Notes: generated by a model from the sequence alone, not told the origin. DNA of 64,000 nt from Gemmatimonadaceae bacterium (GCA_041661925.1 JBAZTM010000008.1:1128-65127); one strand, 5' to 3'. Positions 25,843-63,742 are shown, numbered from the stretch's first letter. A program made the numbers and translations.

Positions 25843-25845
25843 CGA

Positions 25846-27992: not shown

Positions 27993-28092
27993 CCTCTCCC
28001 CATAGCGTGCCCTGCCCCAAGGAACATACTGCACCCTCGTTCACCAGAGACCCTTGGGTTTTTGGACGGCGACAAATATGGTTGACGACTAG

Positions 28093-30572: not shown

Positions 30573-31654
30573 TGAGACTGCGCATTCTCGACCGGTATCT
30601 CGTCGGCGCGTTCCTTCGGATCTTCGGTCTCACCGCGCTCAGCGCGCCGCTCCTGTTCATCCTAGCCGATCTCACAGGACGACTTGACGTCGAACTTGCT
30701 CGGGGGATGACGGCGGGAGACATGCTGCGATGGTATCAGGGGCAGTTCCCGATCTACCTGATCTGGGCCTTCCCCATCGCCGCGCTGGTGGCGACGCTGT
30801 TCACGCTTCAACCCCTCGCACGGCACGGGGAGATCCACGCGATGCTGGCGAGCGGAATTCGCATTCATCGGCTGTTCGCCCCTCTCCTGCTCGGTGGTGC
30901 AGTCGCTTCGCTCCTCGGACTCGTCCTCCTCGAGACGACTCCAAGGCTCGCACGCGATGCGTCGGCAGGACCGCGGGAGTCGGGGCGCGGGCGCGCCGAG
31001 CGCGTCGCCTTCGCGTACCTCACCGATGCGGGGGAGCTCCTCAGCGTCCAGCGGCTCGAGGTGGGAGCGCAGGGACGGATGTACGATCTCGTGCTCCGAT
31101 CAGCGAGCGCGAAGACGGCAGGAGCCGTGCAGTACATCGTCGCGAAGGAGGCGCGCTGGATCGAGGGGCGAGGGTGGGTGCTGCGGGACGGCCAACTCTG
31201 GAACATCGCCGCCGATGGCAATCCGGTGTGGACCTCCTTCGCGCAGCTGTCGCACCCCGCCCTCACCGAGCGACCGAGCGATCTCCTCGACGCGCCCCAG
31301 GTGGACCTCGCCGCCATGACGTTCGGCGACCTCGGACGCCTTGCCGAACGCATGGAGCGCTCCGGAGCGTCCACGGCGTTCCCGCGCACCACGCAATGGG
31401 AGCGGGTGACCATTCCATTGACCACGCTCGCGATCATCATGTTCGCGGCGCCGCTTGCGACCCGCGCGGGACGCGGGGAAGGGGAGCTGGGACTCGCACT
31501 CGCCCTCGTGCTGACCATCCTCTATCTCGCCGTGCTCCGCACCGCGGAAAGTCTTGGCTTCGCGGGACTCTTGCATCCGGGCCTCGCCGCCTCCCTTCCC
31601 GCACTGCTCTTCGGCGCGGGCGGCTGCTTCTTGCTGCGTCGTGCGCACACCTGA
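30572..31654 (+). CDS. lptG: LPS export ABC permease LptG
   Basis: MRLRILDRYLVGAFLRIFGL...GEIHAMLASGI. Its ATG overlaps the lptF stop by 1 nt (TGATG). Confidence 0.85.
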   Translation: MRLRILDRYLVGAFLRIFGLTALSAPLLFILADLTGRLDVELARGMTAGDMLRWYQGQFPIYLIWAFPIAALVATLFTLQPLARHGEIHAMLASGIRIHRLFAPLLLGGAVASLLGLVLLETTPRLARDASAGPRESGRGRAERVAFAYLTDAGELLSVQRLEVGAQGRMYDLVLRSASAKTAGAVQYIVAKEARWIEGRGWVLRDGQLWNIAADGNPVWTSFAQLSHPALTERPSDLLDAPQVDLAAMTFGDLGRLAERMERSGASTAFPRTTQWERVTIPLTTLAIIMFAAPLATRAGRGEGELGLALALVLTILYLAVLRTAESLGFAGLLHPGLAASLPALLFGAGGCFLLRRAHT

Positions 31655-31744
31655 AGTGCGAATCACCGCCTCGGGAGGACTTGATGCGGCGTCGCCGCGG
31701 CAACTCTGCGTCGTGATGCCTCGCGCATTTCCGGACGGTCAGCC

Positions 31745-33421: not shown

Positions 33422-34413
33422 AGCCCTCGCCATTCGTCGTCATCACGTCCATCGCGCCGCCCACCGACGCCGTGCGGGCGTTCGCCGAGCGCGTGGGGGA
33501 CCAGCTCATCGTGGTGGGTGACCGGAAGACGCCACCGGACTGGTCGTTGCCTCCCGTAGAGTATGTCGGCATTTCCGGGCAGGAGTCGGGCGGACGGCTC
33601 GGCACCCTGCTCCCATGGAACCATTACTGTCGCAAGATGCTCGGCTATCTCCGCGCCGCGCAGCGCGGCGCCGAGGCCATCTACGACACCGACGACGACA
33701 ACACACCAAAGCCGGCGTGGGGGATTCCGTTGTTCGAGGGTGCGTGGCAGACCAGCGCCGCCGCCCTCGGTTGGGTGAACGTGTATCGCTGGTTCACCGA
33801 CGCGCACATCTGGCCACGCGGCTTTCCATTGCGTGCCATCACCGATCCGCGTGCCGTGGTGTCGACGGACCAGACGTCGGTCTCCGCGGCACGCGTTGGC
33901 GTGTGGCAGGCCATGGCCGACGGCGATCCGGACGTGGACGCCATCTATCGATTGGTGGACGGGCGCGCATGCTTCTTCCGGGATCGCGAGCCACTTGTGT
34001 TGGGTGAAGGCACGCTTTGTCCGTTCAACTCGCAGGCGACCGCGTTCCAGCGGGCGTGCTTCCCGCTGCTCTACCTCCCGGCGAGCGTCTCGTCGCGCGT
34101 GACCGACATCCTGCGCGGTCTCGTGGCCCAACCCGTGCTCTGGGCCGCGGGGATGCGCCTCGGCTTTACCACGGCCACCGTAGTGCAGGACCGGAACCCG
34201 CACGATCTGCTGCGCGACTTCGAGGCGGAACTCCCGCTCTACCTGCGCGCCGAGGAAATCGTGGATACCGTCATCGGGGCCGTTCGCGGCGGGGCAACGC
34301 TCGAGGCAAATCTCATCGCCGCCTACTCGGCCCTGGAGCGCACGGGAGTCGTAGACGCCACAGAACCGCCTCGCGTGGAGGCTTGGCTGCACGATCTTGC
34401 CGCGTCCACATGA
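33418..34413 (+). CDS. STELLO/DUF288-like glycosyltransferase
   Basis: VVITSIAPPTDAV...VVGDRKTPPDW...LPWNHYCRKMLGYLRAAQRGAEAIYDTDDDN matches my memory of the STELLO (PF03385) N-terminal pattern. Its ATG overlaps the upstream stop (ATGA). Confidence 0.65.
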   Translation: MKPSPFVVITSIAPPTDAVRAFAERVGDQLIVVGDRKTPPDWSLPPVEYVGISGQESGGRLGTLLPWNHYCRKMLGYLRAAQRGAEAIYDTDDDNTPKPAWGIPLFEGAWQTSAAALGWVNVYRWFTDAHIWPRGFPLRAITDPRAVVSTDQTSVSAARVGVWQAMADGDPDVDAIYRLVDGRACFFRDREPLVLGEGTLCPFNSQATAFQRACFPLLYLPASVSSRVTDILRGLVAQPVLWAAGMRLGFTTATVVQDRNPHDLLRDFEAELPLYLRAEEIVDTVIGAVRGGATLEANLIAAYSALERTGVVDATEPPRVEAWLHDLAAST

Positions 34414-34442
34414 CTGCGCTTTGTCGGAGCGGAGACCGCGCT

Positions 34443-35294
34443 CTAATGCCGACCCTGTGCGATGAGAATGAACCGAGGGCATTCGGCGGCCACCGTCTCG
34501 AGAGGCCGCGGATCAATGCCCGCGTCGTTCACACTGGCGCGCCGGTAGTCGCTGTCCGGGAACGCCGCCAGCAGCTCCGTGACTGACGACGAGTAGCGTG
34601 CCAGCCACGGTCCGTGCACCTCAACCAGCACATCGACCGTTCCGGCGGCCAGCGTGGCCGTGGCGCCGCGAAACGCGGCGCCCTCGTATCCCTCGACATC
34701 CATGTAGATGACATCGGGCGCACCGTACTCCGCCGAGAGGGCATCGATGGTCAGCGCCGGCACGGCACTGCCACGGGCTCGCGCAGTCTGGATCGCGCCC
34801 GTCGTCGCGTCGTGCGTCAGGGTGCCAGCGACTGCACCCGCCGCCGCATGGCGGACGATCATCTGATCAATTCCGTTGGCGGACCGATTGACCTCGGCGA
34901 GCCCGGCATGGAACGCGTCCGCCTCGACGGCGATCACCCGGCCCGTGCGTCCCACCTCGCGAGCGAGAATCATGGCGACCACGCCTTGGTGCGCCCCGAT
35001 GTTGAACACCGTCGCTCCGGGGCGCAGCCTGCCGCTGCGCAGGATGGAAAGCTCAGGCATCGTCCAATCCTGATCATACCAACTCGATCCGACGCGGTCC
35101 CCGAGCAGCACCCGTAGCGGGTGGCCGGCGTACGTATGCTCCACCCACCGACGCGCGAACGTTCTCCGCTCCAGGGCGAGTTTGGCGATCTGCAGCCAAC
35201 GCCACCAAGCCGGGGGCAGCGAACGTCGCAACGCCTCCTTGGCAACCTGGTCGAGGTGTTGGTGCTGAGACAGCAAGGAGGCCTCCCTCATCAC
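34443..35294 (-). CDS. FkbM family methyltransferase
   Basis: VFNIGAHQGVVAM, VIAVEAD, and IYMDVEGYEGAAFRGA. Confidence 0.8.
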   Translation of the reverse strand: MMREASLLSQHQHLDQVAKEALRRSLPPAWWRWLQIAKLALERRTFARRWVEHTYAGHPLRVLLGDRVGSSWYDQDWTMPELSILRSGRLRPGATVFNIGAHQGVVAMILAREVGRTGRVIAVEADAFHAGLAEVNRSANGIDQMIVRHAAAGAVAGTLTHDATTGAIQTARARGSAVPALTIDALSAEYGAPDVIYMDVEGYEGAAFRGATATLAAGTVDVLVEVHGPWLARYSSSVTELLAAFPDSDYRRASVNDAGIDPRPLETVAAECPRFILIAQGRH

Positions 35295-35513
35295 GCGCGG
35301 CGTCGAATGCCGCTCCGATCAGCCGACGGGAAGCGTAGGAATCGATCATGGTGGGGGCAAGGGCTGGTTGCTTGCACGAGAGTTGGCCCCGGCCTACCTT
35401 GCCGCGCACGCCGGCAGGCGTGCGACCTGTCGGTTCCTTACCAACAACGGGCCGGACGGTCGCTTCTCTTCCGCTCTGTCCGTGTATTGGCGGACAGCCT
35501 CTCGAGTCACCGG

Positions 35514-36455
35514 ATGCGCACGATCTCACTTACCAAAGCGCTTCGCGCGTTGCGCCGCAACGCGATGCTCCATGGCCTGGCGCGGCTCGGTGAGCGCCGG
35601 AGGCGCATCCTGGCGTGGAGGGTGATGCAGGCTGCGGGCGTCAGCGAAGTCACGTTCACGCGTGATGGCCTGACGTGGCGTGTGCCTGCGGGCGACTCGC
35701 ATATCGGCTTCGGACTGTTCGTGGAAGGCGGCTTCGCGCAAGGCGCTATCGAGGTACTGCTGGCTTGGTTGCAGGCGCAGGGGCGCGCGCCCGGCCCGGA
35801 GGATGTGATCGTCGATATCGGCGCGAACATCGGCACGACGTGCATTCCGATGGTTCGCGCCTGCGGTTGCCGCGCCGTCGCGGTCGAGCCGATGCCCGAG
35901 ATCGTGGCGAGGCTTCGCGACAACGTCGATCGCAACGGGATGGCCGATCGTATCGTGCTGGTTGAGGCGGCCATCGCACGTACTGCAGGTCGAGTGGTCA
36001 TGCAAGCGGGCCATGACATCGGCGCGGCGACCGTGGTGCCGCCGCTGCATGCTGCGGCCATCAACCGCGGTGACCTGGCGGACGTCGTCGGAATGCCACT
36101 CTCCGAGCTACTGACTCGTGCTGGCGTACATCCATCCGAGGTGGCGCTCGTGTGGGCCGATGCACAGGGCTCTGAATCGGACGTCATCGAAACCGGCGAG
36201 GCACTCTGGGCACGCGGCGTGCCCCTCTGGGCGGAGTTCGAACCCGGCCTGCTGGCGCAGCATGGCGGTGTGGAGGCTTTCTTTGCGGCAACGCGCCGGC
36301 ATTTCGATCGTTTCATTGAGGCGCCGCGCCTGTTGCGCGACGGGCCGAGTGCCGCGCCGCACGACATCGCGCGACTCCCAGCGGTGCTCGCAGGCGTGCC
36401 GATTCAGACGGACGTCCTGCTGCTGTCGCCCTCGCTCAGCGCGCGCCTGCCCTGA
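35514..36455 (+). CDS. FkbM family methyltransferase
   Basis: VVDIGANIGTT, AVAVEPMPE, and VWADAQGSESDVI. The start is set at MRTISL (ATG 35514); the upstream part of ORF 35121 is antisense to the previous gene. Confidence 0.8.
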   Translation: MRTISLTKALRALRRNAMLHGLARLGERRRRILAWRVMQAAGVSEVTFTRDGLTWRVPAGDSHIGFGLFVEGGFAQGAIEVLLAWLQAQGRAPGPEDVIVDIGANIGTTCIPMVRACGCRAVAVEPMPEIVARLRDNVDRNGMADRIVLVEAAIARTAGRVVMQAGHDIGAATVVPPLHAAAINRGDLADVVGMPLSELLTRAGVHPSEVALVWADAQGSESDVIETGEALWARGVPLWAEFEPGLLAQHGGVEAFFAATRRHFDRFIEAPRLLRDGPSAAPHDIARLPAVLAGVPIQTDVLLLSPSLSARLP

Positions 36456-36551
36456 CGGCGTGTGCCGCCCTCGAGGCGGCGTCCGGCGGCGTGCGGCGGC
36501 GTCCGGCGGCATCCGGTGGCGTGCGGACCCGCGCAGAATGCGGTCCCACGG

Positions 36552-37427
36552 CTACCCAGTGATCGGCGACCGCTCGCGGAGCGGGTGGCCGTAGCCTCGC
36601 GAGTAGCGCGGTGGAGCGTAGAGAAACGACGCTCCACGCGAATGATCGGGAAAGCGATCGTCCACGAGGTCCGCCCGGACGAAGTAGGCGTTCACCCCAT
36701 TGGAGGAACAACCAACCAGCAGGTGGCCGGAACGAGCGCCGAGCTTGGCCAGCGACGAGAGCGAGGCGCTAAAGTACGCGGTGCCGCGCCAGCAGTGGTC
36801 TGGGGCATACGGCATAACCCACTCTCGCGGTGGGCGCCAGCGCGCGTTGTACTCGATCACCGTCACCCGGGGCTGGTAGGCGCTCAGGATGCGTTCCCAG
36901 ACCCAGTAATCATTCCCGTCGATGTCAATGACGAGCAGGTCGGGTGACTGCGGAACGCCGGCCGCCTCGAGCACCGAGAGCACATTCTCCGCGGTGACGC
37001 ACCTCGGGAGGATCCGCACGCCGGGGAGGTGCCGGTACAGTTGCCGCGCGTGGTCAGCCGCCGTCTCGTCCGCTTCGACCAGCACGCCGCACCATTGGTG
37101 ATGCTGCAGGAGATTTCGCGTGCAACACTCGCGGCCGTCTCCGATGCCCAACTCGACGGAGAAGCGATTGCCGTCGCCGATCCGCGTGAAGATCTCCGCA
37201 ATCGCGCCATCTTCGCCGTCCTGCGAGTAGACTCGCCGTTCGAAGCGCGAAAGCGCCGTGGGCGTCTGTCGCCGCTTCCACCGCTCCACCTCGACCAGGC
37301 GCCGTGGCGTATGAACCGCGACGTCGATCGCCCACGCCAGCGAAGCGAATCGGGCGAGGTGCCACTCCATTCGTTCAAGGAGCGTGGGCCGAGGCCATTG
37401 GCTGATCGGGGGCGTTGGTCCTGCCAT
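36552..37427 (-). CDS. FkbM-like SAM-dependent methyltransferase
   Basis: YSQDGEDGAIAEIF...VELGIGDG...VLVEAD...LLVIDIDGNDYWV. ATG 37427 is preceded by GGGAGAG. Confidence 0.65.
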   Translation of the reverse strand: MAGPTPPISQWPRPTLLERMEWHLARFASLAWAIDVAVHTPRRLVEVERWKRRQTPTALSRFERRVYSQDGEDGAIAEIFTRIGDGNRFSVELGIGDGRECCTRNLLQHHQWCGVLVEADETAADHARQLYRHLPGVRILPRCVTAENVLSVLEAAGVPQSPDLLVIDIDGNDYWVWERILSAYQPRVTVIEYNARWRPPREWVMPYAPDHCWRGTAYFSASLSSLAKLGARSGHLLVGCSSNGVNAYFVRADLVDDRFPDHSRGASFLYAPPRYSRGYGHPLRERSPITG

Positions 37428-37705
37428 GCTCTCCCTCTGAGGGTCCTGTCGGCGAAGCGCTGGTCGCGCCGGGGCTTCCACACGCGCATCGCAAAAAGCT
37501 ACGCTTCAGTACGGTCCGGGATAGTCACCGATGCGGGCCACCCGAGGCTGGTTCACGGCAAGACCCGGCCCTATGATTCGCTCGGTTCACCACGCGATAT
37601 GACCAACCCTGCGCGCGCAGATCACATTCGACGACGTCATCGCCGTGCGCCCGTTCTGCGCAGGCGCGGGCAGAATCGCGCCCATCCCGCTGCGAGGCCC
37701 GCCCG

Positions 37706-38518
37706 ATGACGGGCTTTCCTCCGGTGTTTGTCATCAGCCTGTCGCGGTCCGTCGAACGACGGGCTCACATCTCTCGTCAGCTTTCCGCTCTCGGCGTGTC
37801 GTGGGAGTTCGTTGATGCCGTCGACGGGTTGGAACTTGCGGCCGAAGAACTGGATCGCGTCGTGGGTGCGTCGAACTTGGAGGTCCTCCCCGGGGTCTGG
37901 CGGCGCCTCACGCGAGGGGAGATCGGGTGCGCGCTAAGCCATCAGCGTTGCTACCGACTGATTCTCGCGCGTGACCTGCCGATGGCCTTCGTCTTTGAAG
38001 ATGACGTGGACGTCAGGTCGAGCTTCGTCGAGGTCGCGAATGCACTCGCGCGCTTCCCGGTGAACTGGGAACTGGTGCTCTTTGCGCATCACTCGGCGCG
38101 AAACGGGCCACGCGCGGGCGCCGAGACGACCTGGTACGGCGCGACCGTGCACCCGGAGCATCGCGTGCGGCGCGTGGTGGAGTTTGCCATGGGGGCGATG
38201 GCCTACCTCGTCTCCCGCGCGGGGGCACGCAAGCTCCTCACCTACGGCACGCCCGTGCGGATGCCGGCCGATTGGGTGACAGGATACGCGCCCAGTGCCG
38301 GCGTGCGGCTGCATGCCGTCACGCCGCCCGTGGTCACACCCTCCACGGCGCTGTCCCACGGCACCACGCTTCCTGATCGCGAGGCCTCGTGGGAAGCTGG
38401 GCCCGACGTTCGTCGTCAGCCGCCCATCGCGGCGGGGCTCCGCTCGTGGGGCGGCACCGGGCTGCTGTGGCTCCGGAAGGCCGGTGTGTGGCCCAGTGCG
38501 TACTCCCGGCGCTACTGA
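37706..38518 (+). CDS. GT25 family LPS/LOS glycosyltransferase
   Basis: VFVISLSRSVERRAHISRQL...FVDAVDG...GEIGCALSH...FEDDV. Confidence 0.85.
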   Translation: MTGFPPVFVISLSRSVERRAHISRQLSALGVSWEFVDAVDGLELAAEELDRVVGASNLEVLPGVWRRLTRGEIGCALSHQRCYRLILARDLPMAFVFEDDVDVRSSFVEVANALARFPVNWELVLFAHHSARNGPRAGAETTWYGATVHPEHRVRRVVEFAMGAMAYLVSRAGARKLLTYGTPVRMPADWVTGYAPSAGVRLHAVTPPVVTPSTALSHGTTLPDREASWEAGPDVRRQPPIAAGLRSWGGTGLLWLRKAGVWPSAYSRRY

Positions 38519-38553
38519 GCGATGCGTCCCAGCGAACTCACGCCCGGCCGGTC

Positions 38554-40443
38554 ATGAAGCGATTCCTCTACTTGTTCCAAGTCGAGCAGGATCTTCCGTC
38601 CGCGTTGGAGGCGGCAGCCGGTCCGGACAGCGACATTCGCTTCTTGTCCTGGCGCGCACGATCGGCGGATTCCCGGAGCATCTACTATCCATCCAGTTCC
38701 TGGACGCAGGGCCGGAACCGCCTGCTGAAGGAGGCGCTGCGACGCGATTACCTGTACGTCGTGTTTGGCGACGACGACATCACGCTTGAGTTGACGGAGC
38801 GTGGCGTCACGGCGGCCGGCCCGCAGGCGAATCCGTGGCGCGTCTTCGAGGATTTCCTGCTGACCTACGAACCCGCCGTCGGCTGCAGCATGTATTCCTG
38901 GCACCTGAGCGGCGGCGCGTACGATCCGACCCAGGACTGTCAGACGCTCCGCTTCTTCGACGCGATCCTCAACGCGTTCCACCGCGAGTCGCTTGAAGTC
39001 TTGCTCCCCTACTACGACCTCCTGGACGAGGAGACGGAGTGCTACTCCCAGAGCCTGCTCTGCAGTCTCGCCGCGGATCTGTATGCGGGACATGTGATGC
39101 AGACGAATCGCCTCATCGCCGCCAACGACAAGCGTCGCCGGACCGACCTGGCCTTCGTCCTATGCAAGCCGGAGCAGCTCTACCTGGAGTCGCTGCGTGA
39201 TGCCGAGTGGGCGCGGCGTTTTGCGCGCCAGGGCGTGGGCGACAGTGCCCGCTTTCCAACGATGGGACCACCCCGGAGGAAAACCGCATCGTTTGCGCGA
39301 ACGGACGAGGAACTGGCGCGGCACTACGACCTTTCACACCTGCTCTGGACGCGCCGGCGGGCGCTCCGCGCGCTTCCGGTCACCGATGAGTTCTACTCCG
39401 ACAGCGCGGACTCACCGCGCGCATTCCAGTGGCGCGCCGCCAGGCCACGGCCGGCGGCTCTCCCGGCGCCAGCCATCCAGTCCCGGTTCGCGCTGCCGCA
39501 CCCTTGGCGGCTGCCGGCGTGGACTCGCTCCTATTTGCAGAAACCCGCCGTCCGTGCCCATCCGCTGTTTCTGATTGCTCGGGATCTTTACCGTGGCCGT
39601 GGGCGGCCTCGTGCCATCGCCGAGGTGCTTGGCAGGATGAAGTCCCGACTCCCCGCGCGAGGTCTCTGGCGAAGGTGGTACCGAACAGCTGGGGCCATTC
39701 ACGAGATTCCCGAGGCTCGCCAGCAAGAGGTCCTGGAGCTTCTTGCGTTCGCGCTGAACGAGCTAGCTGATCCGAGCGTGGTGTTCGTGGATGTTGGTGC
39801 GGGGCGCGGCGACGTGCTGCATGCGCTCCGTTGCACGGATCTGCACAAGCGCCTCTTCGCACTCGGCATTGATCCCATCGACCTGCGTGGGCAGCCGAGT
39901 TACACCGGCTACGTGCAGGCCGCCATCACCGACGGCCCCGAGGGTCACGCGGAACTGTTCCGTTACGCCTCGAGCGACTGCAGCTCGCTGAAGCGCATGG
40001 ATCCGACGAAGGTCACGCACGACCCCGCGCTGGGAGGGGACCGCCTCTACTACACACCCACTCCCATCGAGCGTCTGGAGGAAATGGTCCGGGTGCCGAC
40101 CTTCCACCTCTCCACGATCATCCGGCAGTACGGGCTCGCGAACGACGTGCTGCATTTCGTGAAGATCGACGCGCAGGGGAGTGACCTGGACGTCTTTCGC
40201 AGCCTGGGCGAGATGAGCTCGCGGTGTCTGTTCCTCCGCATGGAAACCGTGTGTCACGAAGGAGAAGGACCGGCGCCCACCCTGTACGAAGGGCAGACGA
40301 CGTTCGCGGAAGACCGCGCGGCGCTCGAGGCGGCCGGATTCCGGCTCTTCAACATCGCGCGATTCGGTTCGACGCCGGAAGCGGACGTGACGTTCGTGAA
40401 CGTGCGGCTGTTTCGGGAGCTTCTCCCAGCCCTCGCCCGCTAG
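38554..40443 (+). CDS. Two-domain protein: uncharacterised N-terminal domain (paralogue of 31745..33421) plus an intact FkbM-type methyltransferase domain
   Basis: The N-terminus is as in the paralogue. The C-terminus has VFVDVGAGRGD ... FVKIDAQGSDLDVFRSLG. The start is set at MKRFLYLFQ (ATG 38554). Confidence 0.8.
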   Translation: MKRFLYLFQVEQDLPSALEAAAGPDSDIRFLSWRARSADSRSIYYPSSSWTQGRNRLLKEALRRDYLYVVFGDDDITLELTERGVTAAGPQANPWRVFEDFLLTYEPAVGCSMYSWHLSGGAYDPTQDCQTLRFFDAILNAFHRESLEVLLPYYDLLDEETECYSQSLLCSLAADLYAGHVMQTNRLIAANDKRRRTDLAFVLCKPEQLYLESLRDAEWARRFARQGVGDSARFPTMGPPRRKTASFARTDEELARHYDLSHLLWTRRRALRALPVTDEFYSDSADSPRAFQWRAARPRPAALPAPAIQSRFALPHPWRLPAWTRSYLQKPAVRAHPLFLIARDLYRGRGRPRAIAEVLGRMKSRLPARGLWRRWYRTAGAIHEIPEARQQEVLELLAFALNELADPSVVFVDVGAGRGDVLHALRCTDLHKRLFALGIDPIDLRGQPSYTGYVQAAITDGPEGHAELFRYASSDCSSLKRMDPTKVTHDPALGGDRLYYTPTPIERLEEMVRVPTFHLSTIIRQYGLANDVLHFVKIDAQGSDLDVFRSLGEMSSRCLFLRMETVCHEGEGPAPTLYEGQTTFAEDRAALEAAGFRLFNIARFGSTPEADVTFVNVRLFRELLPALAR

Positions 40444-41591
40444 GCGCTCCCGGTCTCCGGCTCCGGTCGCGCATCGGGCTCGTTGGGGTTTCCCCACGTC
40501 GAGTCGCCCGGGTGCCACAGGAAGGTGCGGACAAGGCCCGGCACGCACACCACCGGGATTCCCCTCCGGGCAGCCGAGGCGGGCGCACCGGTGGTGATCC
40601 AGGAGTCTTCGAGTGACGCCTCCCACCGGCGCTTCGGGGCGCCGAGGTACTCCGTGGGAATGGGGAGCACGCCCCGCCAGTAGTCCCGGTGCGCGTGAAG
40701 GTGGACGCCAGCGGTCTCGCGTTTGAGCAGCACGCGCAGTCCGCTGATCTCCCGCTCCTCTAGCACGGCGTGCTCGGCTGCATCGTAGCCTGTCAGCAAT
40801 GGGCGCAGGGCCGCGTCCTCCAACCGGTGCAGCGACTCGAGCAGATCGGCACGTACGTCCGCATCGTCCTGCACGCACGAGATCCACTGCATGTGCGAGT
40901 CAGCCAGCAGGTACGCGAGCCCCGCGTTCAGGGCCGCGCTGATCCCGCGGTTCGACGGGAGCCGGAGATACTCGGCGCCGTGCGCGCGGGTCACGCCCTG
41001 ATTGCGATGCGCCGCCGCGGTGCGGGATCCGTCGTCCACCACGAGCACGGGAGCCCCGAGTCGAACCAACTGCGGAAGCGATCGCTCCAGCGCCGCGGGG
41101 CGCTCGAAAGTGGTGACCAGAATCGCCCGGTCCTTCCAGGCGGGAACCTTGAGCGCCGGGAGGTCGTTCCCTGCATCCGTCGGCGCGAGGAGCGCATCGA
41201 GCCGAGCACGCATGCCCGGGTTGGCTTCGATGGCGGAGTCGCGACGAGATGTTCGAAAGAGGAGGTAGCGCCGGTTCTCCATCACGCGGAGGTAGTCATC
41301 GCGGAGGCCCCGAAGCAGCGCGGGGGGAAGTCCCGCCAGCGCCGCCTGCGGCACGATCACCCAAGGGAACGCGCGCACGGGGAGGTCGTCCGCCACGCCG
41401 CGCAACGGCATGAGACAACGAAGATAGGGTGCGAACTCATCGGGGCCCATGACGCGGACATCTCGCGGATCGCCATCGATGGAGTCGAGCACGGCCCGCA
41501 GGAGCCAGGCATCCATGAGGGGCCCCACGATCGTCGTGCGCCGGGCCGTCCGGGCCAAGTCCACGAAACGCCGGAAGAGCCCCTCGGTCAT
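40440..41591 (-). CDS. GT2 glycosyltransferase with an extra ~150-aa N-terminal domain
   Basis: ILVTTFERPAALERSL...VVDDGS...LPSNRGISAALNAG...QDD. Its stop shares the palindrome CTAG with the convergent gene. Confidence 0.8.
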   Translation of the reverse strand: MTEGLFRRFVDLARTARRTTIVGPLMDAWLLRAVLDSIDGDPRDVRVMGPDEFAPYLRCLMPLRGVADDLPVRAFPWVIVPQAALAGLPPALLRGLRDDYLRVMENRRYLLFRTSRRDSAIEANPGMRARLDALLAPTDAGNDLPALKVPAWKDRAILVTTFERPAALERSLPQLVRLGAPVLVVDDGSRTAAAHRNQGVTRAHGAEYLRLPSNRGISAALNAGLAYLLADSHMQWISCVQDDADVRADLLESLHRLEDAALRPLLTGYDAAEHAVLEEREISGLRVLLKRETAGVHLHAHRDYWRGVLPIPTEYLGAPKRRWEASLEDSWITTGAPASAARRGIPVVCVPGLVRTFLWHPGDSTWGNPNEPDARPEPETGSA

Positions 41592-41753
41592 GCCTGCACT
41601 CCTCCGCCTGTGACGGTCACCCGATCTGTGCGTACGCATGCGCGTCGCGTCCTCGGCAACCTATCCCGCGCCCTGCGGGGCCACAACGTCCGGCGCCGCC
41701 CGCGGCATGAACGGCGCGGCGAACGGACATCACGCGAAATCCCCTTCCAACGC

Positions 41754-41783
41754 TTGACGCTGCCAATGACGGGTGCCTACTGT
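41754..41783 (+). promoter_or_regulatory. Candidate sigma70-like promoter for the ABC exporter
   Basis: TTGACG, an 18-nt spacer, then TACTGT, about 125 nt upstream of ATG 41910. This is pattern match only. Confidence 0.25.
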
Positions 41784-41909
41784 GGATCTGCAGTCTGGCG
41801 GGATTCACGCCCCTCGTTCACCGTCGGCACGGCACCGCTGGTGCGCTGCAGCCAGTTTTGTTCGCCGAGTCCACCGCCGCCGAGTCCCGAGGGACGCCGT
41901 CACCATCCG

Positions 41910-43721
41910 ATGATCTCGACACTCAAGAAGTGCATCGGCATGGTCCCGCGCGAGCTTCGCACGGGGTGGCTCGGATTGCCATTCCTCGGCCTGCTTGCCG
42001 GGGCCCTGGAAGGTGGCCAGGCCGGCGCCATCTACCTCCTCATCCGCCTGATGGGTGAACCGCGCGCGATCTTCGAGTTCACCAAGTGGCCGGCGCTGCG
42101 ACGGGTGTTCGAGGGCGCGACCGACATCGGAATTATCCTGCGCTTCGCGGCGCTGCTGGCCGTCTACCACGTCGTGAAGAACCTCATCGTCATCGGCTCG
42201 CACTACCGTCGGCAGAACATCCTCGCCGGCACGAATGCCGCGCTCTCGAGCGCGTTGTTCCGCGGGTACCTGCTGGTGCCGCTCCCCTTTCACTTCCGCA
42301 GGCACTCGGCGGAACTGGTGCGCAACACCACGCACGCGGTGGCGGCCGCGGTGGCCGTCCTGGAGGCATTTGACGGTCTCATCCGCCGCGGCTTCACGGT
42401 GGTGAGCCTGACCGTCGTACTCATTGCCACCTCACCCACCGCGGCGCTCGGCTCGGGTGTCGCCCTGGCCCTGCTGGTCACCGGCCTGCTTCGCCTGACC
42501 CGGGCGATGGCCGAACGGGGCGGCAGCGCCCAGCATGAGTTGGGCCAGAGCCTTCAGCAGACGATACAGAACGCCCTCGGCGGCATCCGGGAAATCAAGG
42601 CGCTGGGACGCGAGCCTTACTTCTACAGGACCTTCTCCGATGTGCAGCGGCAGATTTTGGAGCTCGGGCACCTGAACGTGACACTGAGCGTGATTCCCCA
42701 GGTGATGTTCGAGACGGCCTTCGTGCTCGCCGCGCTGGTGGCGGCGGTGCTTCTGGCCACCCAACCCTCGGCCTCGACCACGGCGCTGCCGGTGATGGGC
42801 CTCCTCGGGTATGCCGGGTTTCGCATGATCGTCATGGCGAATCCCATCATCACGACGATCAACCAGATCCGGGCCGCGCGGGCGCCGGTGGATGCCCTGC
42901 ACGAGGATTTCCTCCTCATTCGTCGCGAGACGGCGTCCCTCGACATGGCCGGAGAGTCGCCCGTGACGCTGCGCTCCGAGATGGTGCTGGAGGGCGTGAG
43001 CTACAGCTATCCCGCCGCTTCCCGGCCGGCCCTGACCGACGCGTCGATGCGGCTGAAGGTGGGAGAGGCCATCGGTGTAGTGGGCCCCACGGGCGCCGGG
43101 AAGAGCACCCTCGTCGACCTGATCGTCGGGCTGCTCATTCCGGCGACGGGACGAGTGCTCGTTGACGGCGTGGATGTGACCCGGAACCCCATGCGCTGGC
43201 GGCAGAAGATTGGATACGTGCCGCAGTCGATTTTTCTCCTCGATGATACGCTGCGGCGGAACGTCGCCATGGGAATTCCGGACGACGAGATTGAGGAGCA
43301 GGCTGTGGTGCGGGCCATCCAGATGGCACAGCTCGACCGGCTGGTCGACGCCTGGCCGGAGGGACTGAGCACCGTCCTTGGCGAGCGCGGCATCCGCCTC
43401 TCTGGCGGGGAGCGGCAGCGCGTGGGGATCGCCCGGGCACTCTATCACGATCCCGACCTCCTGGTCTTCGACGAGGCCACGGCCGCGTTGGACGGCGTCA
43501 CGGAGGCCGAAGTCACCCGGTCCATCCACGCGCTCCGGGGACGGAAGTCCATGCTCGTCATCGCTCACCGCCTGAGCACGGTGCGGGCGTGCGACCGACT
43601 GCTGTACCTCGAAGACGGGCGGATCGTGGCGCAGGCGAGCTACGATGACCTGCTCGCCTCGAACGACCGTTTCCGACTCATGGCTGCCGCGTCGGGAGCG
43701 CAGCCGCACGTGGTGAGCTGA
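41910..43721 (+). CDS. ABC exporter, fused TMD-NBD (MsbA/PglK-like candidate lipid-linked glycan flippase)
   Basis: Six TM segments, Walker A GPTGAGKST, signature LSGGERQRVGIARAL and Walker B LLVFDEAT. The N-terminal 380 aa of ORF 40770 are antisense shadow. Confidence 0.9.
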   Translation: MISTLKKCIGMVPRELRTGWLGLPFLGLLAGALEGGQAGAIYLLIRLMGEPRAIFEFTKWPALRRVFEGATDIGIILRFAALLAVYHVVKNLIVIGSHYRRQNILAGTNAALSSALFRGYLLVPLPFHFRRHSAELVRNTTHAVAAAVAVLEAFDGLIRRGFTVVSLTVVLIATSPTAALGSGVALALLVTGLLRLTRAMAERGGSAQHELGQSLQQTIQNALGGIREIKALGREPYFYRTFSDVQRQILELGHLNVTLSVIPQVMFETAFVLAALVAAVLLATQPSASTTALPVMGLLGYAGFRMIVMANPIITTINQIRAARAPVDALHEDFLLIRRETASLDMAGESPVTLRSEMVLEGVSYSYPAASRPALTDASMRLKVGEAIGVVGPTGAGKSTLVDLIVGLLIPATGRVLVDGVDVTRNPMRWRQKIGYVPQSIFLLDDTLRRNVAMGIPDDEIEEQAVVRAIQMAQLDRLVDAWPEGLSTVLGERGIRLSGGERQRVGIARALYHDPDLLVFDEATAALDGVTEAEVTRSIHALRGRKSMLVIAHRLSTVRACDRLLYLEDGRIVAQASYDDLLASNDRFRLMAAASGAQPHVVS

Positions 43722-43762
43722 GTCCCCGTCCGTCCGCTGCATCACTCGCTTTCGAGAGGCCA

Positions 43763-44638
43763 ATGCGAGTCTCCGGATTCACCATCGCCCGACGGGCGGT
43801 CGCACTGGGTTATCCGCTCGCCGAGTCGCTGCGGTCGCTCCTGCCGCTCGTGGACCAGCTCGTCGTCAACGTGGGTGACGGCGACGACGGTACCTGGGAA
43901 ACGGTGCAGGCGCTCGCCGATCCACGAATCGTCGCCTTTCGCAGCACGTGGGACCTGTCCAAGCGCGACGGGTTGACGCTCTCCGAGGAGACCAACAAGG
44001 CGCTCGCCCGATGCGACGGCGACTGGGCGATTTACCTGCAAGCGGATGAGGTGTTGCACGAAGCGGAGGGGCCGGCCCTGCGGGCGGCGCTGCAGCGCCA
44101 CCTCCACTCGCGGGTCGAGGCGCTCAGCCTGCGCTACTACCATTTCTACGGATCGTATCGCACGTACAAGGACGATCCGAGGTGGTGGTATCCGAGGGCG
44201 ACCCGCATCGTCCGAACGGGCATGGACGTCCAGTCCGTCGGGGATGCCTGCGCGTTCATGCGCCGACACGACGGTGCTTGGCGGAAACCGAGGCGGCGTG
44301 ACCTCACGATGCACGTCTACCATTACGGCAGGGTCCGGCCGCCGGCACAGATGCTGCTCAAGCAGCGGAATCTCGAACGCCTGTACCACGACGAATCTTG
44401 GTTGGAGACGCACGGTCTCCCCGCCGACATGGATCTTGCGGCGATCTATGGTGATTCGCGCCACCTGCGCGTGTTTCACGGAACGCATCCCGCGGTCATG
44501 CACGACCGGGTTGCGTCCGTGGACTGGCCGGAGCCACCGCTCGTGGCCGGTCCGTGGCCGGAGTGGATGCGGCGCGGCTACGTGTATGGCGCGTGGGTGA
44601 TCGATCGCGGCGTGGCGGCGCTCCGGGCGCGGCAATGA
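43763..44638 (+). CDS. GT2-like glycosyltransferase
   Basis: VSGFTIARRAVALGYPLAESLRSLLPLVDQLVVNVGDGDDGT...YLQADEV. This is a GT-A fold with DxD-like motifs. Confidence 0.7.
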   Translation: MRVSGFTIARRAVALGYPLAESLRSLLPLVDQLVVNVGDGDDGTWETVQALADPRIVAFRSTWDLSKRDGLTLSEETNKALARCDGDWAIYLQADEVLHEAEGPALRAALQRHLHSRVEALSLRYYHFYGSYRTYKDDPRWWYPRATRIVRTGMDVQSVGDACAFMRRHDGAWRKPRRRDLTMHVYHYGRVRPPAQMLLKQRNLERLYHDESWLETHGLPADMDLAAIYGDSRHLRVFHGTHPAVMHDRVASVDWPEPPLVAGPWPEWMRRGYVYGAWVIDRGVAALRARQ

Positions 44639-58615: not shown

Positions 58616-59341
58616 CTATCGAGCAGACTGATATTTCGCCGGGTCCGCAAGTCCGGCCTGCTCGAAGCCCCGCAGGCGCAGCTGGCAGGCGTCACAATGG
58701 CCGCACGCCGCACCTTCGGCTGACGGGTCGTAACAGCTCGTGGTCATGCCGTAATCCACGCCCAGCGACTGCCCGAGCTGGATAATCTCGCGCTTGGTCA
58801 TCTGCATCAGCGGCGTGTGCACGGTGAGTCGCGTGGTGCCCTCCACGCCCGTGCGCGTGGCGAGGTTCGCCAGCCGTTCGAAGGCCTCGATGAAAGCGGG
58901 GCGGCAATCAGGGTAGCCGCTGTAGTCGAGCGCGTTGACGCCGAGGAACACGTCCTGTGCGCCGAGCACCTCGGCCCACGCCATCGCGAACGAGAGGAAG
59001 ATCGTGTTGCGAGCCGGCACATAGGTGACGGGAATGCCGGACGCCATGGTGGCTGCGTCTCGATCCTTGGGTACGTCAATGTCGCCGGTCAGTGCCGATC
59101 CGCCGAACTGCCTGAGGTCGATGTCGCAGACCACGTGCTGTGTCACGTTGAAGCGCGCGGCCAGCGCGCGTGCGCGCTCGAGCTCGATCTGGTGCCGTTG
59201 TCCGTAACGGAACGACAGTGCGTGCACGGCGTACCCCGCACGCGTCGCCCAGGCCAGCACGGTGGCCGAATCGAGCCCGCCGCTGAGCAGCAGCACGGCG
59301 CGCGTGCCCGGCGCCACCGAAGGATCAGCGGAGTGCGTCAC
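58616..59341 (-). CDS. queC: 7-cyano-7-deazaguanine (preQ0) synthase
   Basis: LLLSGGLDS (PP-loop) and a C-terminal Zn cluster (C..CGHCDAC). GTG 59341 overlaps the aguA stop (GTGA). Confidence 0.9.
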
Positions 59342-60372
59342 CGGGCCGGCTGCTGCTGCGTGAGGCAGTGCAGTGTGCCGAGTCCCCACACCAGATCCAG
59401 CGCGTGGATGCCGACGACGGGGCGGTCGGGGACCAACTCCGCGAGCGCGTTGAGCGCCACGCGATCGTTTGCGTCGTTGAAGGTCGGCACGAGCACCGCG
59501 CCGTTGGCGATGTAGAAGTTCGCGTAGCTCGCCGGCAGACGCTGCCCGTCCATCATCACCGTGCGCGGATAGGGCAGCGGGACGACGCGCAGGGACTCGC
59601 CGCGAGCGTCGCGCGCCGCGCGCAGGCGCCGCAGGTTGTCGAGCGACCGGGCATGATTCTCGTCGGCAGGGTCCTGCTCGTGGGCGAGCACCACCACGCC
59701 GGGGGCCACCCAGCGCGCGATGTCGTCCACGTGCCCGTGCGTGTCGTCGCCGACGCACCCCTCGCCCAGCCAGATCGTGGTCGAACAGCCCAGCTCGTCG
59801 GCAAAGATCCGCTCGTAGTCGGCGCGGCCAAGGCCCGGATTTCGCACCTGCACACCGGAGAGGAGCCACTCCTCGGTCACCATGATGGTGCCGCACCCGT
59901 CGGTCTCGATGCCGCCGCCCTCGAGCACGAGAGGGACATTGCCATTGGGGCGCATCGGCACCCGCCGCGGGCGGCGCGTCACGTCCGCCACGAACTCACC
60001 GATCGTGGCGTCGAGCGAGTAGTTCTCGTACTTCGCCCACGCGTTGAATGCCCAGTCGCACCACGCGAGCGTGCCATCGGCGCCGATGACGCCTGTGGGC
60101 GCGCTGTCGCGCAGCCAGACGCGGTCCGTCGGCTTCAGGTGCAGCCTGACGCCACCCGAAACGTGGTGCGCCGCGAGGCACGCTTCGGCGTCCTCCAGGA
60201 CTGTCTGGTCATGGCAGAGGATCTCCACCTGTTCCGACTGGGCGAGCACGCGCGCGATCTCCGCGTAGACCCACGGGATCGGCTCGAACTTGCCGGGCCA
60301 GTCGGGCTCGTAATGCGGCCACGCGATCCACGTGGCGTCGTGGGCTTCCCACTCGGCGGGGAATCGGGGCAT
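59338..60372 (-). CDS. aguA: Agmatine deiminase
   Basis: [20 protein letters not shown]..., and a C-terminal GTLHCLTQQ with the catalytic Cys. Confidence 0.9.
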
Positions 60373-60374
60373 CG

Positions 60375-61334
60375 TCAGGCGTCCCGCGGACCGATCCAGC
60401 GGTTCAGGATCGGGCCGTACGCGTCAACGCGCCGGTCGCGCAGGAACGGCCAATTACGGCGGGTCTCCTCGACGCGGCGCGGATCGCACGTGGCGAGCAG
60501 GATGGTCTCGTCCGTGCCCGCCTCGGCGAGCGCTCGGCCGAACGGATCGTACACGAATGAGTGCCCGAAGAACTCGATGCCGTCGGTGCCGTTCTCCGCC
60601 TCGAAGCCAGTGCGGTTGGCCGCCGCGACGAAGACCCCGTTGGCGATGGCGTGCGCGCGCTGCGCGGTGCGCCAGGCTTCCACCTGCGCCTCGCCCCACT
60701 CTGCCTTCTCCGCCGGATGCCAGCCGATGGCGGTCGGATAGAACAGGATGTCGGCGCCGAGCAGCGACGTGATGCGCGCCGCCTCGGGATACCACTGGTC
60801 CCAGCAGATCAGCACGCCGATGGTGGCGTAGCGGGTCTTCCAGACCATAAAGCCGCCCGCTTCGCCGGCCGGGCCGCGCGCACCTGCGGGTTGCACGGGG
60901 TCGTGCGACTCCCCCGGCGCGAAGTAGTACTTCTCCTCGAAGAGCGGGTCGTGCGGAATGTGCATCTTGCGATAGACGCCCTGCACCGTGCCGTCGGCGT
61001 CAATGATGACGGCCGAGTTGCGGTAGACGCCCGGCGCCTGGCGTTCGTAGATCGGCGCAACCAGCACCACCTCGAGTTCCGCCGCCAGCGCGCTCAGCCG
61101 CTGCACTGTGGGGCCGGGCACCGGTTCGGCGAGGTCGAACCGCTCCAGATCGAGCTTCTTGCAGAAATACGGCGCGTCGAAGAGCTCCTTGAGGCAGATC
61201 ACCTGCGCGCCGCGCGCCTGGGCGGCGCGAATGCTGGCGATCGTGCGATCGAGCGTCTCCGCCTTGGAGGACGCGACGCCGTCCTGGATGAGGGCGACGG
61301 TGAACGGGGCGGCAGGCATGCGGGCCAATTTCAC
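60375..61334 (-). CDS. aguB: N-carbamoylputrescine amidase (nitrilase superfamily)
   Basis: E-K-C triad context (LKELF, YRKMHIP, ICWDQWYPE). Adjacent to aguA. Confidence 0.9.
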   Translation of the reverse strand: MKLARMPAAPFTVALIQDGVASSKAETLDRTIASIRAAQARGAQVICLKELFDAPYFCKKLDLERFDLAEPVPGPTVQRLSALAAELEVVLVAPIYERQAPGVYRNSAVIIDADGTVQGVYRKMHIPHDPLFEEKYYFAPGESHDPVQPAGARGPAGEAGGFMVWKTRYATIGVLICWDQWYPEAARITSLLGADILFYPTAIGWHPAEKAEWGEAQVEAWRTAQRAHAIANGVFVAAANRTGFEAENGTDGIEFFGHSFVYDPFGRALAEAGTDETILLATCDPRRVEETRRNWPFLRDRRVDAYGPILNRWIGPRDA

Positions 61335-61395
61335 CTGACACGGGAGAGAGCGCTACTGATTGAGGAACTTCCAGATCCTCAGTCGCTTCGCTCAG

Positions 61396-62739
61396 CTACA
61401 TCCGCACCGCGATGACCACGTCGCCGACGTTGGTGCCGGTGAGGCCGGTCTTGAGCAGCGCACCGGACCGGTGCAGCGCCTCGTAGCTGTCGTGCTGGCG
61501 CAGGGCGGCGGTCGGGTCGAGGCCGGCTTCCATGATGCGCGCGGCGGTGGCGGCGTCGACGATCGCCCCGGCGGCGTCCGTAGGTCCATCGCGTCCGTCG
61601 GTGCCGGCCGCCAGCAGCGTGATGCCGCTCGCGCCGGGGCCGGCCTCGGCGAGTTCCAACGCCGCGGAGAGCATCATCTCCTGGCAGCGTCCGCCGGCGC
61701 TCCGAACGGCGCCCATCGTGACGGTAGTCTCGCCCCCCCAGAAGGCCACGCCGCCGCGCGGCAGCGCCATCGCTGCCGACGCGATGCGCACGCCGGCATG
61801 GAGAGCCTCGCCGTGGAGCGGTTCATTGACGATGACCACCGGGTCGAAACCCAGCACACGCGCCCGCAGCGCACCCGCGTCGAGCACCCCGCCGTTGCCC
61901 TGCACGGCGGGAACGCCGGAGAACAGGAATGCGGGCGAATCGGACTTGGGCGTCTCGGGACGCTCGTTGCGCATTACCTCGTCGAGGTAGCGGAGCATCG
62001 CAGCCGGCGTCCGGTCCAGCATCTGGGTCTCGTCGAGCAGGAGCCGCACGTCCACTGCCGTCGAGGCGTCCGGCACGCACGGTCCCGACGCGATGTGGGC
62101 AAGGTTGTCTCCGATGACGTCCGACAGGACGATCTGTTCGACACGGGCCGGCGCGAGTGCCATCGCGAGGCGCCCCGCGCCCCAGCGCAGGAAGCGCTTG
62201 CGAATGGCGTTGACGCGGCCGATGTCGAGGCCGGAGCGCAGTAATTCGTCGCTCAGCGTCGTCAGGTGGTCCTGCGCGTCAATGCCGTCGACGGGGGCGG
62301 CCACCAGGCTTGTGGCGCCGCCGGAGAGCAGGACGAAGACCCGGTCGCCGCCGGGTACGCGATCGCACAGGTCGCCAAGGGCGCGGGCGGCGGCGAGCGA
62401 CTGTTCGCCAGGGATCGGATGGTCCCCAGCCGCCACGGCGATTGCCGGATGGGGCGTATCCGCGATGCTTGGACCGACCACCAGACCGCCGGCGATCGTG
62501 CTGTTGCGCTCACGCAGTTCGTGCACCGCCGCTCGCGCCATTGTGTGCGCGGCCTTGCCGAGGGCAATGACCCACGTGGGCCGGTTCTGGGCCCGATCGT
62601 TTGGAAGGCGAAGCCGGACGGCGCGCGCCGTGAATGACGTCGGGTCGGCGGCGATCAACGAGGCGGCAAACAGGTCGCGGACCGTGACCGCGCCCGAGCG
62701 AATGGACGGGATGGATGAGCGATGTGTCGAAGTCTGCAT
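61396..62739 (-). CDS. Glycerate 2-kinase / hydroxypyruvate reductase-like protein (DUF4147 + MOFRL)
   Basis: GKAAHTMA, LLSGGATSL, and a C-terminal MOFRL block (LLAAGTDGRDGPTDAAGAIVD...TGTNVGD). Confidence 0.8.
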   Translation of the reverse strand: MQTSTHRSSIPSIRSGAVTVRDLFAASLIAADPTSFTARAVRLRLPNDRAQNRPTWVIALGKAAHTMARAAVHELRERNSTIAGGLVVGPSIADTPHPAIAVAAGDHPIPGEQSLAAARALGDLCDRVPGGDRVFVLLSGGATSLVAAPVDGIDAQDHLTTLSDELLRSGLDIGRVNAIRKRFLRWGAGRLAMALAPARVEQIVLSDVIGDNLAHIASGPCVPDASTAVDVRLLLDETQMLDRTPAAMLRYLDEVMRNERPETPKSDSPAFLFSGVPAVQGNGGVLDAGALRARVLGFDPVVIVNEPLHGEALHAGVRIASAAMALPRGGVAFWGGETTVTMGAVRSAGGRCQEMMLSAALELAEAGPGASGITLLAAGTDGRDGPTDAAGAIVDAATAARIMEAGLDPTAALRQHDSYEALHRSGALLKTGLTGTNVGDVVIAVRM

Positions 62740-62859
62740 CTCGTCACTAATGACGGTAAAGAAGCGGCGGTTCCCGGCTCCTCGGCGTTGGAGTCGGCTT
62801 CGTGGGACGCTGTGCACAGTCACCCCGTGCCGTCAGAACCCCGTCACTGCGCTGTGCAA

Positions 62860-62897
62860 CCGGGGGCGGCAAGCGCCGATGCGCCTGCCGCCCCCGG
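62860..62897 (-). terminator. Strong hairpin downstream of the peroxiredoxin gene
   Basis: CCGGGGGCGGCA-14nt-TGCCGCCCCCGG, a 12-bp perfect stem with no clear U-tract. Confidence 0.5.
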
Positions 62898-62955
62898 GGT
62901 TGACGTTCGTCTGACGAGGACAAGATGTCCCGTTGCCAGACCCGCGTGCCGTCGA

Positions 62956-63537
62956 CTATTTCCCGCCCTTCGACACCGCGTCGATGACCGAGTCGAGTTG
63001 CGCATACTGGTCCTGCGACAAGGCCGAAAACGGGCGGAAGACGTGAACAACGCGTCCGTCCGGTCCGACGACAAACACTACGCGCTTGTAGAACTTCTTC
63101 AGCGGTCCGATGCCGGTGCCCGTGGTCGCGTACTTCGCGGCGACGTCGCCGGAGGTGTCACTGGCGAACAGCACGGGGAAGTTGGCGTCCTTTGCCCACG
63201 ACGCGAGTTCATCCACGCCGTCGGAACTGATGGACAGGGCGACCACGCCCTTGCCACCGTTGAAGATCGTGGCGTACTGATCCCGGTACGCCTCATGTTG
63301 GACGGTTCAGCCCTTGGTCCGCGCCTTGGGGAAGAACGAGATGACGACGGTCTGCCCGCGGAAATCGGCGAGGCGCAATGCCCTCTCGGTCACGCCGGCC
63401 TTGGAAGCGCCGGGGAGGGAGAAGTCAGGGGCCATGTCGCCAACTTGGGGGCCGTCGCCTTGGGCCCACGCGTGCGCTGCCGCCAGCCCGACGAGGGCGG
63501 CAGCGAGCACGGTGAGCGAGACGGCACGCAACAACAT
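62956..63537 (-). CDS. BCP/PrxQ-type peroxiredoxin, secreted, with an in-frame TGA (63309-63307) at the peroxidatic-Cys position; candidate selenoprotein, alternatively a pseudogene
   Basis: Track ORFs 63307..63573 and 62956..63246 are in the same frame. My translation across the gap reads ...DFRGQTVVISFFPKARTKG[TGA]TVQHEAYRDQYATIFNGGKGVVALSISSD... Compare E. coli BCP YFYPKAMTPGCTVQACGLRD. Confidence 0.7.
63256..63306 (-). promoter_or_regulatory. Candidate bacterial SECIS-like hairpin directly downstream of the in-frame UGA
   Basis: The mRNA reads UGA-ACCGU...GGCGUAC-CGGGAUCA-GUACGCC...ACGGU. The upper stem is a perfect 7 bp (63292-63286 with 63277-63271) with an 8-nt G-containing loop. The lower stem is 5 bp, ACCGU/ACGGU (63306-63302 with 63260-63256). 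Confidence 0.45.
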
Positions 63538-63742
63538 TATGGGGGGGGTCCTCTGGTGAATGATCGACGTCAAGATGACCTTCCTATCTACTCAGTGAAC
63601 ACCCGATTCAGCAACTTGAGTTCCCGGCTGGGGTAGACCTTCGCACGGCTCGACTTCAGCCCTCGCAACCCTGAGGATGTTCCTGGCCGTCTAACAGGAA
63701 CGCTCTCTCGCTCGTTGAGAGTATGACCCCCGTAACAGCGAC

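Follow-up and report, generated by a model that had tools for sequence, protein, structure and literature searches.

A putative exported, cysteine-free peroxiredoxin of the BCP/PrxQ type with selenocysteine at the peroxidatic position in Gemmatimonadales

A selenocysteine (Sec)-containing family of peroxiredoxins (Prx) has been predicted in 78 organisms (Peng et al., 2016; PMC5029168), and five independent Cys-to-Sec events have been described within Prx (Zhang et al., 2006; PMC1794560). The characterised case of the Sec-Prx family is PrxU of Eubacterium (Peptoclostridium) acidaminophilum. The active-site motif given for Sec-Prx is PxxxTxxU, and the bSECIS model from the same source describes the bacterial SECIS element as a stem of 4–16 bp with a loop of 3–9 nt, a UGA-to-loop distance of 16–37 nt, a minimum free energy (MFE) of at most -7.5 kcal/mol, and a G in one of the first two places of the loop with G or U next to it (PMC13188914). 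Outside the Sec-containing family, PprX, a cell-envelope peroxiredoxin of Caulobacter crescentus, is reduced through ScsB and TlpA (PMC3322552). Our literature search returned nothing linking Gemmatimonadota to the use of Sec and no description of an exported Sec-peroxiredoxin.

We analysed a stretch of 64,000 nucleotides from a Gemmatimonadaceae bacterium, referred to here as the window. The initial annotation had proposed that two ORF pieces on the minus strand belong to a single gene, and translation bears this out: the pieces 63573..63307 and 63246..62956 lie in the same frame with a single TGA (63309-63307) between them, and the read-through product reads ...FFPKARTKG-U-TVQHEAYRDQY... We moved the start from the TTG at 63573, where that annotation began its range, to the ATG at 63537 (MLLRAV...), since orthologues begin at the same Met. 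The coding sequence of the presumed selenoprotein precursor extends over 62956..63537 on the minus strand and comprises 193 codons, with Sec as codon 77 and a TAG stop at 62958-62956. TGA is the ordinary stop codon of many genes in the window, which excludes a genome-wide reassignment of TGA. We estimate a probability of about 0.9 that the gene is intact and codes for an exported BCP/PrxQ-type peroxiredoxin carrying Sec as the peroxidatic residue, and the in-frame TGA is very probably a real Sec codon.

Directly 3' of the stop codon, positions 62860..62941 (minus strand) hold two stable G+C-rich hairpins, one of them with a 17-bp stem. The region folds at -68.1 kcal/mol (z = -5.27), and none of 200 shuffled sequences was equally stable. 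A scan for consensus promoters and terminators called nothing, and it passed over these hairpins because they are not followed by a U-tract. They are probably a transcription terminator, and their high stability after the stop codon suggests that the peroxiredoxin gene is its own unit.

The translated protein matches the Pfam family AhpC-TSA (PF00578) with an E-value of 1.4e-23, scores 83.6 bits where the cut-off is 26 and spans positions 1-123 of the 124 in that profile; it also matches the Redoxin family (E 1.5e-16). The top NCBIfam model is NF006960, a BCP-type thiol peroxidase (E 1e-20), with 74.2 bits, below the equivalog cut-off of 140; the PrxU model NF040737 gives 35.8 bits against a cut-off of 270. 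BLASTP aligns the protein with E. coli BCP at 33% identity (E 4e-23), pairing YFYPKAMTPGCTVQACGLRD with SFFPKARTKG-U-TVQHEAYRD and placing the TGA opposite Cys45, in agreement with the initial annotation, which had put the UGA at the peroxidatic Cys of the BCP active site. The closest solved structures, 2ywn, 2cx3 and 5epf (PDB matches with E 4e-11 to 4e-10), likewise have their catalytic Cys aligned with the TGA. The motif P70-K-A-R-T74-K-G-U77 (63307..63330, minus strand), of the form PxxxTxxU, has fYPaaFTqvC as its counterpart in 2ywn and 2cx3 and YPKAMTPGC in E. coli BCP. The conserved active-site Arg of peroxiredoxins is found at Arg152 (KRVVFVV; codon 63082..63084, minus strand), aligned with kRavFvi of 2ywn and 2cx3 and hRisFli of E. 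coli BCP. A resolving Cys in a CxxxxC arrangement is typical of the BCP/PrxQ subfamily but not universal in it, and the earlier claim that it is missing here proved correct: BLASTP places a Glu opposite Cys50, the resolving Cys of E. coli BCP, and the number of cysteines in the whole protein is zero. With Thr74, Sec77 and Arg152 in place and no Cys, the protein should act as an exported 1-Sec peroxidase, as far as its sequence can predict.

Residues 1-25 (MLLRAVSLTVLAAALVGLAAAHAWA; 63463..63537, minus strand) have the basic n-region, the hydrophobic core and the A-x-A site of a signal peptide, all read directly from the sequence, which bears out the signal peptide named in the initial annotation. 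The predicted signal peptidase I cut falls after AWA and before QGDG, and the same layout is found in both the Sec-containing and the Cys-containing relatives. The solved Prx structures align only from mature residue 6, which makes the N-terminal part an extension. An exported Sec-peroxiredoxin is less unusual than the initial annotation had supposed, because TGA together with a signal peptide also occurs in homologues from Acidobacteriota, Verrucomicrobiales and a metagenome-assembled genome (MAG) of Pseudomonadaceae.

We collected orthologues by scanning one genome per species, which gave 79 loci (cited below by their L numbers). Besides the window, 23 Gemmatimonadales loci each contribute one copy with TGA as the peroxidatic codon, at amino acid identities of 49-91%, whereas 13 copies from the same clade have TGC or TGT. 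Assemblies carrying the TGA form include PNKL01, VHBQ01, CAYQCP01, CAMTWA01, JACREJ01, JACPFW01, JANYJW01 and JAHFCT01. The TGA forms are those of L001-L015, L016 (second copy), L017-L021, L026, L029 and L034, from Gemmatimonas, Gemmatimonadaceae and Gemmatimonadales MAGs; the Cys forms are found at L016, L018 and L020 (paralogues), L022, L024, L025, L027, L028, L030-L033 and L035. TAA or TAG never occurs at this codon among the 23 orthologous copies, and the TGA forms contain neither a frameshift nor a second stop. The alignment of orthologues from independent assemblies, which the initial annotation had named as a check, thus came out in favour of a retained TGA with TGC or TGT in related copies.

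The substitution pattern among 16 close species shows purifying selection on both sides of the TGA, indicating that translation runs on past it. The mature part before the TGA has a dN/dS of 0.131 (dS 0.644), the 16 codons after the UGA, which form the SECIS region, have a dN/dS of 0.026 (dS 0.143), and the remainder after the SECIS has a dN/dS of 0.196 (dS 0.735). The relaxed constraint downstream of the TGA that would mark a decaying gene was therefore not found. Synonymous change is reduced about 5-fold in the hairpin region (dS 0.143 versus 0.64-0.74 elsewhere in the gene), which points to selection on the RNA itself in addition to the protein. A 36-nt block (GAGGCGTACCGGGATCAGTACGCCACGATCTTCAAC; 63259..63294, minus strand) is shared without any change by the window and 16 of the 17 copies from close relatives (L001-L015, L029, L034); L009 has ATT in place of ATC, and the contig of L034 ends inside the block. 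Rare codons of this high-GC3 gene are fixed here: GAT inside the block, and CAA and CAT just 5' of it at 63300-63295.

The putative bacterial SECIS hairpin occupies 63271..63292 on the minus strand, with the 5' arm at 63292-63286, the loop CGGGAUCA at 63285-63278 and the 3' arm at 63277-63271. The element GGCGUAC-CGGGAUCA-GUACGCC has a 7-bp stem and an 8-nt loop, starts 14 nt after the UGA and folds at -10.3 kcal/mol; the perfect hairpin reported earlier is there in sequence and in position. Its dimensions, including a UGA-to-loop distance of 21 nt and a G at loop position 2, lie within all the ranges of the bSECIS model, which upholds the proposal that it has the position and shape of a bacterial SECIS. 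We rejected fold stability as evidence for a SECIS, as the 73-nt stretch folds no better than its shuffles (z-score 0.05) in DNA of 67.5% G+C; with an energy within chance for such G+C-rich DNA, significance can come only from comparison with relatives.

In that comparison, pairing in the 7-bp stem reaches 100% of cells across 15 distinct sequences, and L021 and L026 have C-G in place of G-C as the closing pair, a compensatory change. All 23 Sec copies form seven Watson-Crick pairs (-9.4 to -10.3 kcal/mol) with a loop CG[G/U]GAUCA. The perfect stem is found in none of the 13 Cys forms, which have 4-6 possible pairs and an MFE of 0 to -6.8 kcal/mol over nearly the same peptide ((E)AYRDQ/KYA). 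The hairpin is accordingly a feature of the TGA orthologues, one of the points that the initial annotation had named as a check on its claim. The loop carries a G-G/U dinucleotide at positions 2-3, the SelB-type signature, which is absent from the Cys forms; their loops read CGCGAC(C/A)A in 10 of 13, CGCGAUCA in two and ACCGACCA in one. Because the Ala-Tyr...Tyr-Ala peptide forces four of the seven stem pairs, the independent information lies in three pairs, the loop and the lack of synonymous change. The further ACCGU/ACGGU helix that had been described right after the UGA did not survive the comparison: it is paired in 58.7% of cells across relatives, shows no covariation and is not conserved, and we discarded it from the SECIS as a chance match. 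Rfam, which holds no usable general bacterial SECIS model, gave no match over the whole window at gathering thresholds and only a chance match to PhotoRC-I in 63150-63400 at E-values up to 10.

Several other explanations of the interrupted frame were weighed against these data. A sequencing or assembly error hiding a true TGC or TGT has only the one-base distance between TGA and TGC in its favour; it is refuted by the recurrence of the TGA in independent assemblies from many studies (NCBI MAGs, ENA, JGI, Logan), and its probability is negligible. A peroxiredoxin gene killed by a nonsense mutation at the catalytic codon would be in keeping with the two fragments reported by gene callers and with the lack of a selA, selB or selD match in the window and about 1.2 Mb of related loci. 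However, the same TGA stands in the 23 further copies, which differ by up to 51% in protein sequence and contain no other stop or frameshift, the part past the TGA evolves with a dN/dS of 0.196, and a nonsense mutation would not stay TGA at one catalytic codon linked to an invariant hairpin. One shared contaminating sequence could not account for the recurrence either, as the assemblies differ at many sites. The comparative data thus effectively refute the idea of a pseudogene, to which we assign a minimal probability.

Genuine termination at the UGA would yield a 76-residue exported peptide and a separate C-terminal Prx fragment from an internal start. Codon 79 is indeed GTG or ATG in some relatives, which is why databases hold 115-residue products starting there, but it is GTC or GTT, and hence no start, in the window and in many relatives; the first in-frame start of the window lies 21 codons further on. 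As neither fragment would contain a complete thioredoxin fold or the catalytic residue, two separate products are very improbable. Somewhat less remote, but still unlikely, is a read-through of the UGA that places Trp, Cys or Arg there by near-cognate or suppressor decoding, while the hairpin merely slows termination. Hairpins after stop codons can stimulate read-through, and the absence of selA, selB and selD matches from the window and the related loci agrees with this mechanism as well. Nevertheless, the UGA sits exactly at the position of the catalytic Cys, which is Cys in homologues; an enzyme with Trp or Arg at this site would be inactive, which does not fit the purifying selection on the protein; and the loop bears the SelB-type G-G/U signature that is missing in the Cys forms. 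Taken together, the preferred reading remains an intact gene in which the UGA is decoded as Sec.

As for the Sec-decoding machinery, tblastn with E. coli SelA, SelB and SelD found no selA, selB or selD in the 64 kb of the window or in the related loci, which total about 1.2 Mb, and ARAGORN found no tRNA genes of any kind in the window or in 23 Gemmatimonadales loci. A search of a plasmid collection with SelD brought up no Gemmatirosa sequence among the 40 records listed of 176, nor among the ten commonest genera. A scan for coding ORFs interrupted by TGA detected no credible second selenoprotein gene in the window and 35 loci; the matches were antisense frames or neighbouring genes sharing a frame. 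At L008, for example, hydrolase and deiminase ORFs lie in one frame with a single TGA between them, mimicking a selenoprotein signal.

Turning to the neighbourhood of the gene, we scanned 40 ORFs that cover most of the window with Pfam. None of them is a thiol-redox or selenium gene, and no ScsB, DsbD, CcdA or TlpA-like gene occurs near the gene or among these ORFs. Downstream, at 59338-62823 (minus strand), the window encodes a glycerate-kinase-like protein (DUF4147/MOFRL), a carbon-nitrogen hydrolase and an agmatine deiminase, the latter two of which look like an agmatine-to-putrescine route. Farther away, the window contains an RND efflux operon with genes for AcrB-like, membrane-fusion and outer-membrane proteins (5564-11383, minus strand) and a long cluster of glycosyltransferase, FkbM-methyltransferase, LptF/G and ABC-exporter genes (approximately 25800-44600). 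The GC3 of this cluster is slightly reduced (0.78-0.83), which fits what one would expect of a locus for surface polysaccharides.

Among the wider relatives, the TGA at the peroxidatic codon also occurs in 12 distant BCP-like homologues from four other lineages: Myxococcales (L037, L041, L042), Acidobacteriota (L039, L052, L070, L074, L076, L078), a Pseudomonadaceae MAG (L049) and Verrucomicrobiales (L063, L067). Most of them have a clear hairpin 14-17 nt downstream, less clear in L039 and L052, and six of the 12 carry CGUGA in the loop (L037, L041, L049, L063, L067, L078). The Myxococcales Sec forms retain the resolving Cys as UxxxxC. Signal peptides are found in several of the distant Sec forms, with a twin-arginine-like motif in two; the Acidobacteriota forms of L070 and L074 start with MRRFSRRAALLGLAAAGA or MRFLSRREALLGLAAAGA, and these N-termini look like twin-arginine (Tat) rather than general-secretion signals. 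In a neighbour-joining tree, the Sec and Cys forms of Gemmatimonadales make up one clade, apart from the other Sec forms. This grouping fits the report of repeated replacement of Cys by Sec in Prx (PMC1794560); for the Gemmatimonadales forms, the tree is compatible with a single Cys-to-Sec event and later reversions as well as with several events.

Cys homologues accompany the Sec form, with 13 in Gemmatimonadales, including tandem paralogues, and many in other phyla, so that the gene belongs to a Sec/Cys pair. Tandem Cys and Sec forms lie on the same strand about 550 bp apart at L016 (5173/5727), L018 (9666/10223) and L020 (1996/2553). They would be a natural pair for comparing the two enzymes and for dating the conversion. 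An exported Cys form (FYPKDRTSGCTAEL) is encoded on the 1.1-Mb plasmid 1 of Gemmatirosa kalamazoonensis KBS708 (NZ_CP007129.1; L084:2584-3480), and it is the only form of the gene that this megaplasmid carries. As a cultured member of the Gemmatimonadaceae, G. kalamazoonensis could host tests of the Sec form.

Public protein collections (JGI, ENA, Logan and NCBI) represent the Sec form in pieces of 115 residues, or of 76 and 96 residues (P0001-P0007, P0009, P0014-P0017, P0035, P0041; locus L082), and some of these truncated products bear the name "peroxiredoxin". Our protein search found at least 14 clusters of 115-residue "peroxiredoxins" with 77-88% identity, all starting with V/MQHEAY, two codons past the TGA. 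Full-length relatives, at approximately 50-58% identity, have Cys at the position of the TGA. The sole record of the N-terminal piece of the window gene is a 3-kb ENA contig, whose annotation gives the gene as fragments of 76 and 96 residues. No full-length Sec annotation was present among the best 120 matches listed. With fragments in the databases and no NCBIfam model reaching its cut-off, a whole selenoprotein clade in a common soil and freshwater phylum has been missed.

The mechanism that we propose follows the bacterial Sec pathway. At UGA77, the hairpin 14 nt downstream would recruit SelB-GTP-Sec-tRNA(Sec), so that Sec is inserted without termination; we infer this recoding step from the conformity with the SECIS model and from conservation. 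The 193-residue precursor would leave by the general secretory pathway, as its signal peptide implies, and be cut after Ala25. The mature protein of 168 residues, with the triad Thr74/Sec77/Arg152 and no Cys, would function as a 1-Sec peroxidase, its selenolate reducing H2O2 or an organic hydroperoxide and turning into selenenic acid. The reverse step, reduction of the selenenic acid, would presumably fall to an external thiol partner that has no gene in the vicinity.

The SECIS sits on the conserved peptide E-A-Y-R-D-Q-Y-A. In the Cys relatives, the codons for this peptide already dictate four of the seven stem pairs. The Sec form is therefore probably derived from a Cys gene in which a few synonymous positions became fixed and TGC turned into TGA. 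This suggests how the SECIS came about, namely from a Cys ancestor that may already have encoded most of the stem. We give an even chance to a broader proposal for the largely aerobic Gemmatimonadota: that they harbour previously unreported Sec decoding and a clade of Cys-free, exported 1-Sec peroxiredoxins whose selenenic acid is recycled by a periplasmic reductant, with a SECIS recruited from a hairpin half-encoded by the AY..QYA palindrome of the Cys ancestor.

If read as we propose, the gene implies Sec decoding by these Gemmatimonas-like bacteria and presents a case of a Cys-free selenoperoxidase in the cell envelope, and the tandem Cys and Sec paralogues offer a clean system for studying the birth of a SECIS within a coding sequence. 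We consider the interest of the finding to be moderate, resting on the phylum, on export combined with the total lack of Cys, and on the visible route of SECIS origin together with the systematic mis-annotation. The current understanding stands, given that both the existence of Sec-peroxiredoxins and the repeated conversion of Cys to Sec among them are well documented; as Sec-peroxiredoxins are a long-known family, the window gene is a further member and not a new kind.

The presumed selenoprotein shares with the Sec-Prx family the AhpC/TSA fold, the PxxxTxxU motif with UGA at the peroxidatic position, the existence of Cys homologues and a SECIS hairpin directly past the UGA. It is not an orthologue of PrxU, as the score of 35.8 bits against 270 for NF040737 indicates, but belongs to the BCP/PrxQ branch, and it is further set apart from PrxU by its signal peptide, its lack of Cys and its origin in Gemmatimonadales. 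The best sequence matches are BCP/PrxQ proteins, i.e., E. coli BCP, Aeropyrum pernix BCP (2cx3), Sulfolobus tokodaii Prx (2ywn) and 5epf, with which it has the catalytic Thr, the residue at the Cys position and the Arg in common; unlike them, it would have Sec for Cys and has Glu for the resolving Cys, and it scores below the NF006960 equivalog cut-off. E. coli BCP is cytoplasmic and aligns from its residue 5, without an N-terminal extension, whereas the window protein has an export signal. PprX resembles it as a peroxiredoxin outside the cytoplasm that relies on imported electrons and, by analogy, may be the nearest functional model for its recycling, although PprX uses Cys. With the E. coli fdhF-type SECIS and the bSECIS consensus, the window hairpin shares a stem-loop in the coding sequence just past the UGA, a spacing within 16-37 nt and a G followed by G/U at the start of a small apical loop. 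It differs from the fdhF-type element in its unrelated sequence, its 8-nt loop and the lack of an evident bulged U, and can be regarded as a putative SelB target.
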